Below, piece by piece: positions 39,788-46,568 of a DNA stretch of 64,000 nt. Every line of letters starts with the position of its first letter. Positions within the stretch are counted from its first letter, which is position 1. The notes under the pieces are model-generated. The model searched no databases and was not told the DNA's origin. It saw nothing but the letters and a program-made list of their open reading frames with translations. The stretch is from a virus, in the IMG/VR virus record IMGVR_UViG_3300005077_000003, positions 113,612 to 177,611 of that record, one strand, 5' to 3'. The position numbers were made by a program, and so were the translations under genes.

Positions 39788-40541
39788 AAGTTACTCCTCT
39801 TTTTTGTATTACCTTTGTTGCGCATTCGTTTGCATATTTTATCGCAGCAATTATATCTAAATTTAATAGGTATTTTATAGTTAATGCCGCTAGGAATGTA
39901 TCGCCTGCTCCTACACAGTCTTTCATTGGTACAGATGGAACGTGAAACTCTTCATTTTGATATATACATCCTTTATCCCCTCTAGTTACAATTACATTAT
40001 GAGCCAGTATTGGATTTAAATCAAACACATGTTTAGTATTATTATATTCACTTGTATTGAGTTTTATGAAGGTAATGTCATTACACCATCTGCCCAAGAT
40101 TTTTTTTGTGTCCAAGAATGTAATTGGATAATAAACAGCTATTTTTGATATATCAGATTCTGTTAAAAATCCTTTGCAGTAATCTGATATTATAACAGCC
40201 TTAGCATTTGGATAGCTATCAAATAGCTTATTAATATCACAGTGTTCTACTTTATCATCACCCTCATCTACTCTTAGCAACATACTATTAGTACGTTCTT
40301 CTACATACCTGGTCTTTGATATCTCTTTCCAATTATCATTAGTAATAATACCAGGTTTAGTATTTATATTGTTTATTTTTAGCAATGACTCTAGATTTAA
40401 TAAAGTATTCATAGCCATACCTGGATTGCTTTTCTGGCTAACTTTATTAAATACTAATGCTGGAGCTTCTGGGGCAATTCTATTACATGGTCCATAGATA
40501 AAATTATCTATACAACTTTCTCCAATGACAACTATTTCCAT
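39774..40541 (-). CDS. PfkB-family sugar kinase, HldE/RfaE heptose-7-phosphate kinase-domain-like
   Basis: VIGESCID.F.YG...R..PEAP..V, ISDYCKG, DCVGAGDTF. Confidence 0.85.
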   Translation of the reverse strand: MEIVVIGESCIDNFIYGPCNRIAPEAPALVFNKVSQKSNPGMAMNTLLNLESLLKINNINTKPGIITNDNWKEISKTRYVEERTNSMLLRVDEGDDKVEHCDINKLFDSYPNAKAVIISDYCKGFLTESDISKIAVYYPITFLDTKKILGRWCNDITFIKLNTSEYNNTKHVFDLNPILAHNVIVTRGDKGCIYQNEEFHVPSVPMKDCVGAGDTFLAALTIKYLLNLDIIAAIKYANECATKVIQKRGVTYVEF

Positions 40542-40545
40542 TTTA

Positions 40546-40959
40546 TTACCAACTTATTTCCCAATCTTTGAATTCACTAGCTAAACAATCAACTTTGTAG
40601 TCTTTACGCCCACCAATTGATTCTTGTATAATATTTTTCGCAGTATTTCTTATGCCATTAAGGCCATGTGTTAGTTTTAGGTTTCCATCGGAAAGCCCTT
40701 TTCTAACATTAGACTCATTATGCCATATATGTAAATTCATTTGCGACAAAACTATTATCGCACGAATCATTTCTGATTGTATACCTAGTAGTTCTAAATC
40801 ATGTAGTATATCTTTTATTTCCTGTGCATATTCTTCTTTATGCTCAGGAATAAAGACTTCTTTTAATTGTAAGATAGATAACCTATCTATCAATTCTGAA
40901 ACAGTTGGTAAATATTTTCTTTTGTTTTCATCCATAATATTTATAATATACTCGTACAA
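40546..40959 (-). CDS. Hypothetical helical protein of the glycan island (137 aa; start may be 40935)
   Basis: In-operon ORF with motif SELIDRLSILQLK. Confidence 0.6.
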   Translation of the reverse strand: MYEYIINIMDENKRKYLPTVSELIDRLSILQLKEVFIPEHKEEYAQEIKDILHDLELLGIQSEMIRAIIVLSQMNLHIWHNESNVRKGLSDGNLKLTHGLNGIRNTAKNIIQESIGGRKDYKVDCLASEFKDWEISW

Positions 40960-41900
40960 TGTTTTACTAATAATTCTGCATTATTACTTGGTAAATGTCT
41001 TTTTATAAAAGATTCTTTTATATATGATAGTGTTTTTTCGTCTTTAAAAGTAGTTGCCTCGGTGATTTTCTGTACCCACTCATCAATGTTATTGATATCG
41101 TCAACAACAAAGCCATATTGGGCAATATTATCATGTTTAACTGCACATCTATTAGATACAACTACTGGCAACCCAGCAACCTGTGCTTCAACAATAGTCA
41201 TCCCATATGTTTCTGTTCTAAATGGAGATACTAATAATGATACATTATTATACATGCTGCCGTAATGCTGTTGACCAATTATATTGATATTATTATTAAC
41301 AATAACTGGTTCAAAGTCTTTATATCCAACAATATTAAATTGTAATGACGGCATTTTAGATGCTATATTGTTAAGAATATCAAATCCTTTTACAAATGAT
41401 ACTCTAGACATTAGTATAGGACCATCTATGGCTCTACAATTATTAAAGTTCGAAAAATCTATACTTGGATATACTACTTCAGTCTTATAATTAAATTGGT
41501 CTTCTAATACAGATTTGAAATAATTAGAATTAGCAATAACTAAATCAGGTTTAAAGTTCTTATTTTGTAATTCACAATTAGAGCATTCTTTTGAACAAAA
41601 AGCAGTTATGCTTGGATATCCACCCTTTGAACAGATATGTTCATATGAATGAGCCATATAAACTAGCGGCTTATTTAATAAGCATGCAACCTGTTCTCCA
41701 TATGGAGTCCAGTTTAGTTGTGTAATAATAATATCAGAATCAACAAACTTTCTTAAACAAGAAAAGTCATTTAAATTAGTATTAGTAATTGTATAGCAAA
41801 TATGTCCACTATTTCTTAGTGCATTAATTAAGTTAATAGATGTTATTTCTGCACCACCAACTGGAATAGTTAGGTTATATGCTATATAAAGTATTTTCAT
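40941..41900 (-). CDS. GT-B (GT4) glycosyltransferase
   Basis: GGAEIT, IANSNY, RVSFVKG, ETYGMTIVEAQ..G.PVV.S. Confidence 0.9.
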   Translation of the reverse strand: MKILYIAYNLTIPVGGAEITSINLINALRNSGHICYTITNTNLNDFSCLRKFVDSDIIITQLNWTPYGEQVACLLNKPLVYMAHSYEHICSKGGYPSITAFCSKECSNCELQNKNFKPDLVIANSNYFKSVLEDQFNYKTEVVYPSIDFSNFNNCRAIDGPILMSRVSFVKGFDILNNIASKMPSLQFNIVGYKDFEPVIVNNNINIIGQQHYGSMYNNVSLLVSPFRTETYGMTIVEAQVAGLPVVVSNRCAVKHDNIAQYGFVVDDINNIDEWVQKITEATTFKDEKTLSYIKESFIKRHLPSNNAELLVKHCTSIL

Positions 41901-41922
41901 TTACTCTCTTATAAAAAGAAGG

Positions 41923-41967
41923 TGGCTCCCCGGCTGTGAATCGAATACAGGACATTCGGTTTAACAG
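41923..41967 (-). pseudogene. trnN: 3' half of a split tRNA-Asn(GTT)
   Basis: Minus strand: CTGTTAA ACCGA ATGTC CTGTA TTCGATT CACAG CCGGGGA G CCA, i.e. anticodon loop, T arm (A53 replaces G), acceptor 3' strand and encoded CCA. Confidence 0.8.
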
Positions 41968-42002
41968 GGAGCGTTAATCTCAGGACGGAAATATTATTAA
42001 GA

Positions 42003-42233
42003 CTAACAATATTTGGTTAGCAATTTTAATAATTCTTCTGCTTGTTCACGAGTTTGGCAACTCCAAAAGTCTATCCCACCAGGACTACCTATCGTCTCTC
42101 CAGGCAGAACATAATCACAACTTGGCTTATCATAATCTCCATACTCAGCTACAGTATAATCATACTGCACCCAATATGGGAAATCTGAACCTGATAGAGC
42201 ATCTATTATTTTATATTTAGGAGTATCATTCAT
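42003..42233 (-). CDS. Hypothetical protein (76 aa) inside the tRNA-Asn interruption
   Basis: ORF track; its start codon overlaps the HNH start on a CATG palindrome. Confidence 0.55.
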   Translation of the reverse strand: MNDTPKYKIIDALSGSDFPYWVQYDYTVAEYGDYDKPSCDYVLPGETIGSPGGIDFWSCQTREQAEELLKLLTKYC

Positions 42234-42573
42234 GTTAAAAAAATGTAAGCGGCATGGATTAACTGACCATGCACCAATTAAGGGTAGGAAAAATGGTTAT
42301 AGGTGCAGAAAATGCACTGTAGAAGCAGTACAAAAACGCAGGGAAGCTGTAAAACAAATGTCAATTGATTATAAAGGTGGTTGTTGTAACAAGTGTGGTT
42401 ATAGTAAATGTAATAAAGCTCTTGAGTTTCATCGTTTAGACCCTACTAAAAAAGACTTTTCCATATCGTACAATGGTAATACATATGCATGGACAACAGT
42501 AAAGAAAGAGCTTGATAAATGTGTTTTGCTCTGTGCTAATTGTCATAGAGAAAAGCACGCTGGCCTTTTCTAG
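42232..42573 (+). CDS. HNH endonuclease-family protein, antisense to the operon, possibly inactive
   Basis: GGCCNKCGY.KC..ALEFHR.DP..KDF.I...ELDKCVLLCANCHREKH; AGGAG SD upstream; the usual HH dyad reads HR. Confidence 0.85.
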   Translation: MLKKCKRHGLTDHAPIKGRKNGYRCRKCTVEAVQKRREAVKQMSIDYKGGCCNKCGYSKCNKALEFHRLDPTKKDFSISYNGNTYAWTTVKKELDKCVLLCANCHREKHAGLF

Positions 42574-42601
42574 ACGCTCTCAACCACTGAGCTACCGGGG
42601 A
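42573..42601 (-). pseudogene. trnN: 5' half of a split tRNA-Asn
   Basis: Minus strand: TCCCCGG TA GCTC AGTGGTTGA GAGC G TC. The acceptor 5' strand pairs 7/7 with the CCGGGGA of the 3' half, and the D arm is intact. Confidence 0.8.
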
Positions 42602-42608
42602 TTACGTT

Positions 42609-42797
42609 TTATATTATATGTACGTCAATTGATTCTATATACCAATCTCTTTCTATAAAAGAGTGGTCTAATTCTGGTTCAGCTTCATTGGCAGCAGTCA
42701 TCAATTGTTTTTCTGTTGGTTCATCAGAAAAATAAAAGTCTACATTGTATTCGTACCAATGTGCTTTGTATATAACATATGTTTTATCGTCATTCAT
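42609..42797 (-). CDS. Hypothetical protein (62 aa)
   Basis: ORF track; ATGA overlap with the upstream gene. Confidence 0.55.
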   Translation of the reverse strand: MNDDKTYVIYKAHWYEYNVDFYFSDEPTEKQLMTAANEAEPELDHSFIERDWYIESIDVHII

Positions 42798-43801
42798 AGT
42801 CTTCCAGCTCCATGGGGCATACTTTCAAGTACTCCATTGCTAGTAATTTCTGCCCAAATTGCGCGCTCCCTTATTTGGTGTAAATTATTAGCACCACAAT
42901 AAGTCATACCACTACGGATACCACCCATTAGGTCTTTTATTACATCTTCTACTGGACCTTTAGCTTGTACTGTAATCTCTATACCTTCAGCAGTTTTCCA
43001 GTCATTCATAGAACCCATGTAATCTTCTTGGGCTTCTTTAGAAGCCATGCCGCGAAACAGCTTAAATAGGCTCCCGCTATCATCTCTAATAACATTGCCA
43101 GGAGTTTCATCTGTACCTGCTAACATGCCACCAAGCATCACCAGATCAGCTCCAGCAGCGAAAGCTTTAACTGCATCACCAGGATACCTAATCCCGCCAT
43201 CTGCTATTAGGAGACAAGTAGTTCGCCTACATTCCTGAATAGCAGTGAATTGAGGCAGACCAAACCCCGTCTTCATTCTAGTTGAACATACGGATCCAGG
43301 GCCGATGCCGACCTTAATAGCGTCAGCCCCAGATCCAGCTAAATATTCTGCGCCAGCTTGTGTGCATACATTGCCAGCTATTATAAAACAACTATCATCT
43401 AATGATTTTATTTTGCCTATTAGTTCACCTACTGCTTTAGAATGTCCGTGAGCTACATCTACACAAAAGAATTTGGCGCCTACTTCATGTAATGCGGCAA
43501 ATCTATTTAGTTCTTCATTAGTACCTATAGATATAACTGCTTCGGCAGATTCCGCACGTACTCTTTGGTACATGCTTATATTATCTTCTATTGAGCAGAA
43601 CCTATGAAGAAAGCCAAGGCCGCCCAGCTTTCTTATTTTGATAGCCATCTTACTACCAGTAATGGTATCCATATTGGATGACAGTACTGGTATATCTAAG
43701 ATTAGACTACCAAAAGATACAGAGGTATCCGGCAACTTTCTGCTAGGTATATTATTATATCTTGGTAGTAAAGTTATATCATCAAATGATAGTGCTTTCA
43801 T
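42794..43801 (-). CDS. IMP dehydrogenase / GMP reductase family enzyme (no CBS domains)
   Basis: [46 protein letters not shown]...[31 protein letters not shown]. Confidence 0.9.
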
Positions 43802-43810
43802 TGATTTTAA

Positions 43811-44458
43811 TTAGCCAGGAATATAGGTGTATTCTATATGGAATTCCATACCAAATTTAAGGCCTACCAAATTATAAGTACCCGGCCAATCAGCATAATT
43901 GTCTAATAGGAACATATCTATCCAAGTGGACGGATACATACATAAGTTTATATTATTATCCCCCTCCCAATAAGAGGCGGGTGGATCATATGATCCAAGC
44001 AGACTAAAATAGAAAGGCCCCCATTCTAATGGAACTCCATTACACCACAGATTATCAGTATCAGTATGTCTATGTGCTATATGAGAAGAGTTAGGTGGTA
44101 CTACATACCAATAATGATCACCATGTGGAAATATAATTGATCCAAATGACAACATAGACCATATGTTATCTCTGGAATAAATCCATGGCACAGTAGATAT
44201 GCCGCTTACAATATCTTGTGCTGGGAAATACTGGTTTGTTGGATTAGTAATTAAAACTCTTGAATCCAACATAAATCTATCTACCTTTATTTGTACGTCT
44301 ATTAGCGTACCAAGGTTTGTATCAAATGGTTCTACCTGAAATGGAAATATTTCCCCATTAAAAATGTCAAGATTAGCAAACTGGTAATCTTGTGATATTG
44401 TTTGCGGGCTTGTTGGGCTTAATGTCATTATTAATGACGCAATTAAGTTAATTAGCAT
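43811..44458 (-). CDS. Secreted/surface protein, possibly choice-of-anchor-E-like (215 aa)
   Basis: Hydrophobic N-terminus; FDTNLGTL..V motif recalled from that family; AAAGGA SD upstream. Confidence 0.4.
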   Translation of the reverse strand: MLINLIASLIMTLSPTSPQTISQDYQFANLDIFNGEIFPFQVEPFDTNLGTLIDVQIKVDRFMLDSRVLITNPTNQYFPAQDIVSGISTVPWIYSRDNIWSMLSFGSIIFPHGDHYWYVVPPNSSHIAHRHTDTDNLWCNGVPLEWGPFYFSLLGSYDPPASYWEGDNNINLCMYPSTWIDMFLLDNYADWPGTYNLVGLKFGMEFHIEYTYIPG

Positions 44459-44477
44459 TTTTGTTATCCTTTTACAT

Positions 44478-44514
44478 AAAAAAAGTAGAGATCAAAATAA
44501 TTGGATCTCTACTT
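44478..44514 (-). terminator. Rho-independent terminator downstream of tRNA-Met
   Basis: AAGTAGAGATC/GATCTCTACTT 11-bp inverted repeat followed by a T tract on the minus strand. Confidence 0.75.
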
Positions 44515-44539
44515 CCCAAGTACTATTTAGTAATGTATA

Positions 44540-44628
44540 TGGTAGCGGGGGTTGGATTCGAACCAACACTTTGCATTAGATGTCTTCGGGACATGAACCC
44601 GACATGTTACCTGTTACACTACCCCGCG
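44540..44628 (-). tRNA. trnM: tRNA-Met(CAT), initiator-type, with an 18-nt variable region
   Basis: CGCGGGG/CCCCGCT acceptor with C1.T72 mismatch; D arm GTGT/ACAT; anticodon stem TCGGG/CCCGA (three G-C pairs); loop TTCATGT; T arm GTTGG-TTCGAAT-CCAAC; ends ACCA. Confidence 0.85.
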
Positions 44629-44638
44629 TTATTACTCA

Positions 44639-44842
44639 TCAGACTTCTTCCTCAGAATCTTCTTCTTCGTCAAAGTCAAATGGTTGTTCTACTGCATCTT
44701 CTATTACATCTTTAATATCTATTATAGATATATGGTCTGTAGTTTTTTCTTCATCCTCTTTAGGGGTTACTTTTTCTACTAGATCCTCTGATGTAATTGG
44801 TTGAGAATCTGATTTTTTTGGTTGTCTACCGTAGTGCTTCAT
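44639..44842 (-). CDS. Small acidic hypothetical protein (67 aa)
   Basis: ORF track; Asp/Glu-rich C-terminus. Confidence 0.55.
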   Translation of the reverse strand: MKHYGRQPKKSDSQPITSEDLVEKVTPKEDEEKTTDHISIIDIKDVIEDAVEQPFDFDEEEDSEEEV

Positions 44843-44844
44843 GA

Positions 44845-45543
44845 TTATAAAATGTCATCAATTACTTCTAGGATCATTTTTGACCAGGTTTCATATGTAT
44901 TTAAGTTCTTTGGAGTTTTAGCCAAAAACTTGGGCGATATAAGACCTTCACTATCTTTTACAGATACACTATCGTCAATTCCTAGAATAAATATTATTCC
45001 TAAATGAACTGCCCCCACAGGTGGGGTACTATATGTAATACATTTATCTTTTCCGTCTAATGGGGTATAAATTAGGCCAACTTCCACCAAATTTTTTGCA
45101 ATATCTGTCTTATCTATGCCTAATTCCTCTTCAACCTCTCTAGCTGCACCAAATAAAATAGTATTCCAGGTTATAGTTTTAATATTTCTATTCACAGCTA
45201 AGTTGTCAGCATAATTAATATGGCCACCTATACCTATGGATCTTTTGCCCTCTAATCTGCCTTCCCCGCCGCCCTTTCTTCTGTAAGAAAGTATTTTATT
45301 ATCTTTAGTAACGCATATTACATATGGTATTAATTGTACAATTGACGAGTCTCTTTCTGCCATCCACCTGGGCACAAATGAGCAATTAGACAGTACACTT
45401 TTTTCCCATTCTTTATCATGTGGAGATAAATGCACATAGTCAGTTTCAAAATTATATAGTTCTACTCTACTTATTGGATGAATACTCGCCAAGTTTTTTG
45501 TAACTAAAACTTGTTCCTCGCTTTTATCTGGTTTTTCTGTCAT
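44845..45543 (-). CDS. NUDIX-fold phosphoesterase
   Basis: QLIPYVI, Y.R..GGGE.RL.GK.SIGIGGHI, REVEEELG, VG.VHLG. Confidence 0.8.
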   Translation of the reverse strand: MTEKPDKSEEQVLVTKNLASIHPISRVELYNFETDYVHLSPHDKEWEKSVLSNCSFVPRWMAERDSSIVQLIPYVICVTKDNKILSYRRKGGGEGRLEGKRSIGIGGHINYADNLAVNRNIKTITWNTILFGAAREVEEELGIDKTDIAKNLVEVGLIYTPLDGKDKCITYSTPPVGAVHLGIIFILGIDDSVSVKDSEGLISPKFLAKTPKNLNTYETWSKMILEVIDDIL

Positions 45544-46568
45544 AGCATAATATTTTTTGATACTGCGGTTGAATTATTAATTTCATCTATATTAAATAAT
45601 ATATCAGTTTTAACTTTACCAGCAGCTGGATTATTAGAATAACATAGCTCACTATATGCGCAAAATGCGCATTCTTTATCTCCAAGTTCTAAATCAAGCT
45701 CTCCTTGTTTAGCTCCTTTCTTCAACCATTTTTCAACTACAGCAATATCTTTTTTGAATTTTATATTGTCGGTTTTGTATAGTGCCATAATATACTCTTC
45801 ACTATACTGAATTTCGTAATCTCTATCTGGAAGCTTGTCTTTTTTAATTTCTTTTAAAATCTTTTCGTTTCTTTTTCTTATTGCTTCCATAGTAATATCT
45901 GGATACTCAGTTTTATTACCCCTCTGGTCATATACTACCACGTATCCATTTTCAAACTTCATCCAAAACTGCCACATTAGTTTAAACATGCTACCATGTT
46001 TATATGCTTTAAGGTCCCAGTTTTCATCTCTTGAAACATATAATATTACCCAATAGTCTACACTCCTATATCCTTTCCTAGAAGTATTTTGGTATGCATC
46101 AAGATATATTGCGCATTGCATTAAAGCTTCTGCGGATGGGTTTTCAATACATTGTTTCCCCGCAAATTCTCCAACAGTTTTTATATCTACTCCAAATAGT
46201 TCTTTAGTTTCAATATCCATAAGAAACAAATCAGATGTTCCTATGGTATAGTTTGTTTTATCATAGAAGGTTTGTTCTGCTGACAGTACTACTAAATTAG
46301 TAGATATAGTATTCTTTCTAAGGTAGTCTTGTATACCTCTATGTAACCAATTTCCCATTTCTGCCGACAAAACATACTCGGGGTTTTTATCATTCGATGG
46401 TTCAAACCCTTTCCATTGGTAATAAAACTTCCTATGGCATCCTCCTATCTTTCTACCACTTGGTAACTCTATTGAGGCAGAGCTAGGATGTAGGCCATCA
46501 TTGGGTATATTTACATATATTTTCCTATCATTAAATGAACTATATAGTCTTTTACATATATCAATCAT
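45540..46568 (-). CDS. Cas4-like PD-(D/E)XK exonuclease with Fe-S cysteines
   Basis: LHPSSAS...C.R, G...H, IGTSDL...DIKT, Q...Y; C-terminal CAFCAYSELC. Confidence 0.8.
   Translation of the reverse strand: MIDICKRLYSSFNDRKIYVNIPNDGLHPSSASIELPSGRKIGGCHRKFYYQWKGFEPSNDKNPEYVLSAEMGNWLHRGIQDYLRKNTISTNLVVLSAEQTFYDKTNYTIGTSDLFLMDIETKELFGVDIKTVGEFAGKQCIENPSAEALMQCAIYLDAYQNTSRKGYRSVDYWVILYVSRDENWDLKAYKHGSMFKLMWQFWMKFENGYVVVYDQRGNKTEYPDITMEAIRKRNEKILKEIKKDKLPDRDYEIQYSEEYIMALYKTDNIKFKKDIAVVEKWLKKGAKQGELDLELGDKECAFCAYSELCYSNNPAAGKVKTDILFNIDEINNSTAVSKNIML

Follow-up and report, generated by a model that had tools for sequence, protein, structure and literature searches.

The window analysed here comprises the last 64 kb (64,000 nucleotides (nt), positions 113,612 to 177,611) of the 177,611-bp IMG/VR virus record IMGVR_UViG_3300005077_000003 (completeness estimate of 92%). 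It carries a gene for tRNA-Asn(GUU) whose 5' and 3' parts are separated by a 605-bp insert containing an antisense HNH endonuclease gene. This tRNA gene was probably broken by the non-conservative insertion of a homing-endonuclease cassette belonging to an HNH clade associated with tRNA-Asn genes, both partners having then begun to decay, so that the tRNA gene at this locus is most likely dead and the nuclease gene in decay. The window has a G+C content of about 36% and comes from an uncultured phage, whose ~178-kb genome is known from a single metagenomic contig.

The two tRNA fragments are collinear on the minus strand (Table 1), as an earlier note on this DNA had read from the letters alone, and they give the only two hits in the window, both partial, in an nhmmer search with a profile of 45 intact tRNA-Asn genes of phages. 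The 5' fragment (42601–42573) contains the acceptor strand TCCCCGG, TA, the D arm (stem GCTC/GAGC, loop of 9 nt), G26 and a final TC that corresponds to the first two bases of the anticodon stem. The 3' fragment (41967–41923) starts with the full anticodon loop CTGTTAA and the 3' stem strand ACCGA, followed by the variable loop ATGTC, the T arm CTGTA-TTCGATT-CACAG, the acceptor strand CCGGGGA, G73 and CCA. The acceptor strands TCCCCGG and CCGGGGA pair at 7/7 positions, which bears out another claim of the note. The break lies after C28, within the anticodon stem, and leaves the anticodon loop uninterrupted; the last base of the insert before the 3' fragment is a C (GCTCC, then CTGTTAA). The three stem bases GGT (positions 29–31) that the note had found missing are indeed absent, since the window has just TC before the break, and they are found at neither junction. 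A scan of viral contigs for the predicted intact anticodon arm, TCGGT-CTGTTAA-ACCGA, recovered 42 stretches. As most of these are ordinary tRNA-Asn genes, many of them also with ATGTC, such an arm is common and the 3' piece corresponds to an ordinary tRNA-Asn from position 32 on. The T stem carries one mismatch, A53:C61 (41946/41938), an A replacing G53 of the usual G53-C61 pair.

Table 1. Features of the split tRNA-Asn locus and its surroundings, in the order of the minus strand (window coordinates)
Feature	Position	Strand	Remarks
GMP-reductase/IMPDH-family gene	42794–43801	-	PF00478, E 5e-97
orf62, orphan open reading frame (ORF) of 62 codons	42609–42797	-	between the GMP-reductase-like gene and the tRNA 5' piece
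tRNA-Asn 5' fragment (positions 1–28)	42573–42601	-	nhmmer match at 42600–42573, profile positions 2–28; acceptor strand pairs with 41927–41933
Inverted repeat, second arm (6 nt)	42574–42579		3' strand of the D stem and positions 26–27
Insert (605 bp)	41968–42572		antisense HNH gene and sense orf76
HNH endonuclease gene (113 amino acids)	42232–42573	+	antisense to the tRNA; phrog_2255, E 1e-29
orf76, orphan ORF of 76 codons	42003–42233	-	inside the insert, on the tRNA strand
Spacer (35 nt)	41968–42002	-	separates the orf76 stop from the tRNA 3' fragment; includes one arm of the inverted repeat (41969–41974)
tRNA-Asn 3' fragment (positions 32–76 and CCA)	41923–41967	-	nhmmer match at 41968–41925, profile positions 31–74
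GT4 glycosyltransferase gene	40941–41900	-	beyond the tRNA 3' piece

Neither ARAGORN nor the Rfam tRNA model calls a tRNA at the split locus, and none of 540 trial joins of the two pieces gives a tRNA-Asn of normal length with ARAGORN, the only products being over-long artefacts. Lacking a cloverleaf call and three of its bases, interrupted by 605 bp and bearing a T-stem mismatch, the gene has the features of a tRNA pseudogene. Because three bases are lost and no ribozyme is present (see below), no normal tRNA-Asn would be produced from this locus. The profile of 45 intact genes detects no further tRNA-Asn in the 177.6-kb genome.

The insert carries two ORFs that start from overlapping ATG codons (CATG) and diverge. 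The HNH gene is preceded by a ribosome-binding site (AGGAG, 8 nt upstream), and its TAG stop ends at the break, as claimed by the earlier note, the G of this codon pairing with C28 of the tRNA. The HNH protein has 799 homologues of similar length (best 68% identical) and retains the Cys ligands, Asn103 and His105/His109. Its catalytic motif is not intact: the alignment of the family (alignment A1) gives ALEFHH-x-(D/N)P, while the window copy reads EFHRLDP. Residue 68 is thus an Arg (CGT, 42433–42435) where the relatives have a His (87/87 relatives recovered from loci and 92/94 database homologues matching the motif). This residue, the second His of EFHH, is taken here to be at the position of the general base of other HNH enzymes; in Cas9 (D839-H840-IVP) and colicin E9 (H102-H103), the equivalent residue has this role. 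A search with PDB profiles confirmed the McrA-type C-terminal half of the motif only. Because an Arg stands at the probable general-base position, the local enzyme is probably inactive.

The 76-codon ORF reported by the earlier note, here named orf76, is probably a real small gene, as judged from its coding-like sequence. Its codon-usage score (0.36) is close to that of the long genes of the phage (0.39±0.11), with non-coding frames at −0.16±0.26; that of the HNH gene (0.21) is less phage-like than those of neighbouring genes. No orf76 homologue was found by a word-indexed search, nor any match in Pfam or PHROGs. In an exhaustive HMMER search, only repeat proteins match it, through a short GG-x-(D/N)FW-x-C motif of the topoisomerase-type zinc-ribbon-like kind, part of which is retained in orf76. 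A single-sequence AlphaFold2 (AF2) model has moderate confidence (predicted local distance difference test (pLDDT) of 67.5) and no fold match below E 0.1 in the PDB with Foldseek. The neighbouring orf62 is likewise an orphan; the two ORFs were considered as paralogues, a proposal that was rejected as they do not align. The spacer between orf76 and the 3' fragment has no resemblance to the 5' half of the tRNA and was therefore rejected as a decayed 5' half.

The HNH gene belongs by sequence to a clade that was surveyed by scanning IMG/VR with an alignment of 20 sequences, which gave 80 more loci (loci and contigs are designated below by L numbers; counts are over 75 non-redundant HNH cores). 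Its members occur almost exclusively in phage tRNA arrays, with an enrichment beside tRNA-Asn. tRNAs are found in the flanks of 73/75 loci, with 459/478 of them on the HNH strand, and 22 loci have an HNH stop that overlaps the tRNA that follows. tRNA-Asn genes make up 54 of the 478 tRNAs (11%), 18 of the 47 nearest downstream tRNAs (38%) and 16 of the 34 nearest upstream ones (47%). The five of the closest homologues whose contigs were fetched all lie in phage tRNA arrays on the tRNA strand, and in four of them (L077/L078, L079, L080 and L081) the end of the HNH reading frame, stop codon included, extends over the 5' end of a GUU-anticodon tRNA. ORF44 of the cultured Salmonella phage Felix O1 (NP_944863.2), which matches the local HNH gene at the DNA level, overlaps a tRNA-Ile gene by 7 nt at its 3' end. 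The local gene also has a tRNA neighbour, as its stop abuts tRNA position 28, in the antisense orientation that is rare for the clade. In L095, the HNH gene lies directly upstream of a tRNA-Asn gene interrupted between U35 and U36 by a group I intron that lacks an ORF (869–1149), which is the arrangement described for 'collaborative homing' (term from PMC2790892 and PMC3984707).

Several tRNAs beside clade HNH genes are themselves unusual. GUU-anticodon tRNAs of 85–91 nt with a long variable arm (class II shape) adjoin them in several phage contigs (L110 1069–1155; L121 968–1056; L128 1330–1420; L159 1189–1275; L138 1143–1229, minus strand; L084 1806–1890). Other HNH-adjoining tRNAs carry, at profile position 35/36 (nhmmer), anticodon-loop inserts of 48, 96, 141 and 194 nt (L103 1865–1987; L112 2228–2396; L108 1200–1415; L102 2080–2348). 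None of these inserts is recognized as group I by Rfam, being too short or too divergent; they could represent degenerate introns or inserts of a different nature. A sub-threshold match to an HDV-like (hepatitis delta virus-like) ribozyme (RF02682, 34.3 bits against a gathering threshold of 44) directly follows a tRNA in the array of L085 (3110–3178).

Broken tRNAs recur beside HNH genes of this clade. In L085, a tRNA-Asn-like gene (acceptor strands TCCCCAG/CTGGGGA) is arranged as a 5' part, a 95-nt AT-rich leader, a sense HNH gene whose TAA stop occupies the place of loop bases U36-A37-A38, and a 3' part. A tRNA-Ile(UAU) gene is split after U33 by 512 nt including an HNH gene in L154 (110–695) and L160 (1224–1809). 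The insert of these two loci also contains a nested weak tRNA-like element (29 bits), its HNH protein has an N-terminal extension of ~55 residues, and TATAAT is present at both junctions. A tRNA 3' half begins right after the HNH stop in L088 and L156, and in L080 and L143 the HNH gene lies between tRNA-Asn remnants and a complete tRNA. The closest parallel to the locus described here is L138/L139, where the stop of an antisense HNH gene abuts a reversed tRNA 5' fragment. The breakpoints mostly fall at about profile positions 27–36, although the start of the variable anticodon stem is a place where local profile alignments tend to stop; the remnants of L080 and L143 end later and the fragment of L138/L139 ends in the D loop. 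The search among relatives for this HNH family next to tRNAs or tRNA halves, which the earlier note had called for, thus yielded the tRNA-array context, the excess of tRNA-Asn and recurrent broken tRNAs.

Taken together, the following model can be proposed. The enzymes of this clade would cut tRNA gene DNA, in particular that of tRNA-Asn, in or near the anticodon arm in genomes devoid of the HNH gene, and repair from an HNH-bearing genome would copy the gene in. The usual outcome would leave or supply an intact tRNA. The same region of the neighbouring tRNA-Asn gene is, in some genomes, interrupted by an intron at U35/U36. In the present phage, a double-strand break in the anticodon stem would have been repaired by end-joining or by microhomology, with capture of an HNH-bearing fragment. 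Such a capture would account for the loss of 3 nt, the antisense orientation, the co-captured small gene and the lack of an intron. Both partners would have decayed later, as suggested by the A53:C61 mismatch in the tRNA and by the Arg at the probable general-base His of the HNH protein. The tRNA anticodon arm may thus have been the target of this particular HNH enzyme.

Several points weigh against this model. Neither an empty site nor a close relative of the phage was found in the collections searched, so that the state before insertion is unobserved. Relatives looked for through the GMP-reductase-like gene amount to 33 loci with ≤70% identity, none of which shares neighbours with the phage or contains tRNA halves; the glycosyltransferase has no relatives in viral contigs and only 23–28% identical ones in metagenome contigs; and exact DNA patterns from the tRNA 5' half gave no matches. 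The break lies at 28/32 and not at the 35/36 site of the tRNA-Asn intron of L095. The halves are otherwise almost intact, which means either that the event is recent or that something has preserved them. The codon usage of orf76 is that of the phage itself and is not explained by a simple 'foreign cassette', and the clusters of small proteins (three proteins) are seen on this contig alone. Lastly, the contig is a single metagenomic assembly.

Two neighbouring tRNA-Asn copies could also have left two such pieces if, in an ancestral order tRNA-Asn, orf76, tRNA-Asn, the HNH gene had taken the place of the first copy's 3' part and a deletion had removed the 5' part of the second. The resident-like codon usage of orf76 agrees with this origin, as do relatives with tRNA-Asn genes on both sides of the HNH gene (L099 and L110/L113). 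It is nevertheless unlikely: the flanking copies of the relatives differ completely in their acceptor stems (unrelated in L099 and L110), whereas here the pairing is perfect, and two separate deletions ending ≤3 nt apart in tRNA coordinates would be required. Furthermore, no trace of a second tRNA copy adjoins either half, with no decayed 5' half before the 3' fragment and no decayed 3' part after the 5' fragment. Since the pieces pair at 7/7 positions and neither has a decayed partner alongside, a single tRNA-Asn gene, and not two neighbouring copies, appears to have been split. The same small distance between the junctions in tRNA coordinates (≤3 nt), unlike that of a random mis-join, makes it very unlikely that the locus results from a chimeric contig or from a segment mis-oriented at one junction, even though a single metagenomic contig, three small proteins restricted to it and short inverted repeats at the junctions are what such an artefact might show. 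Moreover, the flanking genes are collinear on one strand and analogous splits are found in the independent assemblies of L085, L154/L160 and L138/L139.

The insert could alternatively be a functional intervening sequence, i.e. a degenerate or novel self-splicing element or a split tRNA joined through a GAGCGU/ACGCUC helix, that allows a working tRNA-Asn to be made. Several features fit this proposal: the halves are collinear, nearly undamaged, on one strand and include an encoded CCA; both junctions coincide exactly with the 6-nt repeat (P ~0.02 when the narrowest window is used); and another tRNA of the phage has a group I intron. It is nevertheless extremely unlikely for the following reasons. 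As positions 29–31 are at neither junction, no join yields a 5-bp anticodon stem, and the A53:C61 mismatch would remain in the T stem. The break is in the stem rather than in the loop, and the base preceding the 3' fragment is a C, not the final G of an intron. Group I introns of tRNA anticodon loops follow a 5' exon ending in U, end in G and leave exons that join into a complete tRNA, none of which is the case here. No match to the group I model RF00028 was obtained at E≤10 with the laxest filters, either in 40000–46000 or in 41900–42620 alone (721 nt), while two positive controls scored well: 62.2 bits for the tRNA-Ile(CAU) intron of the same phage (L034 6605–7049) and 67.4 bits for the tRNA-Asn intron of the related contig L095. 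The lack of a group I core claimed by the earlier note is thereby upheld. A core hidden in orf76 was also considered, and was rejected given the silence of Rfam and the coding-like character of orf76 in its own frame. The 679-nt transcript is not unusually stable (fold z = −1.7). The phage record encodes neither RtcB nor an Rnl2-type ligase; it gave no match to an Rnl1 ligase in a search that had no positive control, and the archaeal splicing endonuclease (PF01974) is absent from its proteins, the only ones searched, the archaeal controls being positive. In Nanoarchaeum equitans, the 5' and 3' parts of split tRNA genes are encoded apart with complementary sequences near the break; their long complementary leaders and the archaeal splicing endonuclease lead to complete tRNAs. 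At the present locus, the complement is of 6 nt, no such endonuclease is encoded in the phage record and three bases are missing; with just a 6-bp helix possible, in competition with the D stem, the bulge-helix-bulge structure of split tRNAs is not found. The possibility that both pieces are nonetheless expressed and used, for instance after being joined or assembled by a non-group-I route, can be given hardly any credence; if it were true, for the pieces of L085, L154/L160 and L138/L139 as well, phages would have a ribozyme-free way of tolerating endonuclease genes inside tRNA genes. Of the two options left by the earlier note, the non-intron HNH element that destroys the tRNA gene is thus favoured by the context of the relatives, while the splicing or fragment arrangement is disfavoured by the lack of ribozyme and ligase and by the three missing bases.

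The inverted repeat GAGCGT/ACGCTC is present at the junctions as the earlier note described; the importance attached to it does not hold up as well. The probability of finding a 6-nt inverted repeat by chance is 0.018 when two junction windows of 12 nt are compared and rises to 0.12 when they are of 24 nt, and 851 bp of this region contain 23 unrelated inverted repeats of at least 8 nt. The predicted fold uses the D stem, with which the repeat competes, and does not form the repeat. A later inversion between these 6-nt repeats, in a split tRNA gene that had the HNH gene in sense as in L085, is no more than weakly indicated. Flipping the segment back would place the HNH gene on the tRNA strand, with its stop adjoining the 3' fragment as in L085, L088 and L156, and would bring a GTTAATC motif next to the 5' fragment as in L080; orf76 would then become antisense, which weighs against this origin. 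The inversion is kept as a weak sub-hypothesis because of this antisense orf76 and of the near-chance repeat. The GTTAATC motif itself is found in the spacer (41973–41979, plus strand) and 3–35 nt before the HNH start in L077, L079, L080 and L081. In some tRNA-Asn genes, it is equivalent to G34-U35-U36-A37-A38 followed by the initial bases of the stem and, in L080, it continues the tRNA-Asn 5' remnant. It may be either what is left of the target or a regulatory site.

Homing-endonuclease genes are known from phage tRNA clusters; here, such a gene lies inside the tRNA gene and without an intron. The free-standing GIY-YIG homing endonuclease SegB of T4 is encoded among the clustered tRNA genes of that phage, cleaves the DNA of tRNA genes at a conserved tRNA motif and drives the inheritance of itself and of its flanks (PMC2330249). 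It resembles the present case as a selfish endonuclease gene lying among phage tRNA genes, with its main site in T2L in the tRNA-Asn gene (PMC2330249). It differs in being GIY-YIG and not HNH, in recognizing a T-arm motif and in lying between tRNA genes without splitting any, and its cleavage and homing were shown experimentally (PMC2330249), whereas the present HNH enzyme is known from its sequence alone. The F-Tfl endonucleases of T5 (ORFs in the tRNA cluster, as cited in PMC2330249) and Felix O1 ORF44 are also encoded within phage tRNA clusters, but between intact tRNAs and on the same strand, while the present gene is antisense, inside a tRNA and deprived of its probable catalytic His. The group I introns located at 35/36 of tRNA-Asn(GUU) (L095) share with the locus the host gene, the anticodon-arm region and an HNH family in or next to the intron; they have a ribozyme core (67 bits in L095), follow a 5' exon with a final U, end in G themselves and let the exons join into a whole tRNA, none of which is found here. 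An endonuclease acting on the tRNA-fMet anticodon region, cited as reference 105 in PMC3984707, is likewise described there as a homing endonuclease that recognizes DNA of this region, but it is intron-encoded, cyanobacterial and of a different protein family.

On its own, the locus is a broken gene; its value is that of an example, caught in the act, of an HNH clade that is large and has been little studied. Three states are seen among the members of this clade, which lie next to an intact tRNA, next to a tRNA protected by an intron or within a destroyed tRNA. This series bears both on the union of free-standing endonucleases with group I introns and on the remodelling of phage tRNA sets by homing endonucleases; phage tRNA sets have been linked to the escape from tRNA-cutting host defences (PMC13096335, PMC10264068). 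Cultured phages, Felix O1 among them, carry members of the clade, whose target specificity can thus be tested directly.

The other tRNA intron of the phage lies outside the window (L034 6558–7397, i.e. genome C1:31557–32396, minus strand) and is a 763-nt group I intron with a sense HNH ORF. ARAGORN reads its host as tRNA-Gln(CTG); it reads better, on sequence grounds, as a tRNA-Ile(CAU) split after U36 (the classical 'Ile2' setting) because the 5' exon then ends in U and the intron in G. According to a 2014 review (PMC3984707), no phage tRNA intron was known at that time, and four classical and 17 new tRNA intron settings are mentioned in a preprint (Williams 2020, bioRxiv 10.1101/2020.01.27.920355).

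All the genes around the split tRNA-Asn are on the minus strand. Relatives of the GMP-reductase/IMPDH-family gene that are 60–70% identical occur in other viral contigs of 100–180 kb, with different neighbours. A tRNA-Met(CAU) gene (44540–44628, minus strand, 54 bits) has a 15-nt insertion in its variable region, which is unusual for a class I tRNA. Outside the window, the phage also carries a GOLLD RNA (L034 15813–16264, i.e. genome C1:40812–41263, minus strand; RF02032, 150.8 bits, E 9e-41), in which a tRNA-like element is embedded (RF00005, 50.7 bits, model positions 4–67).

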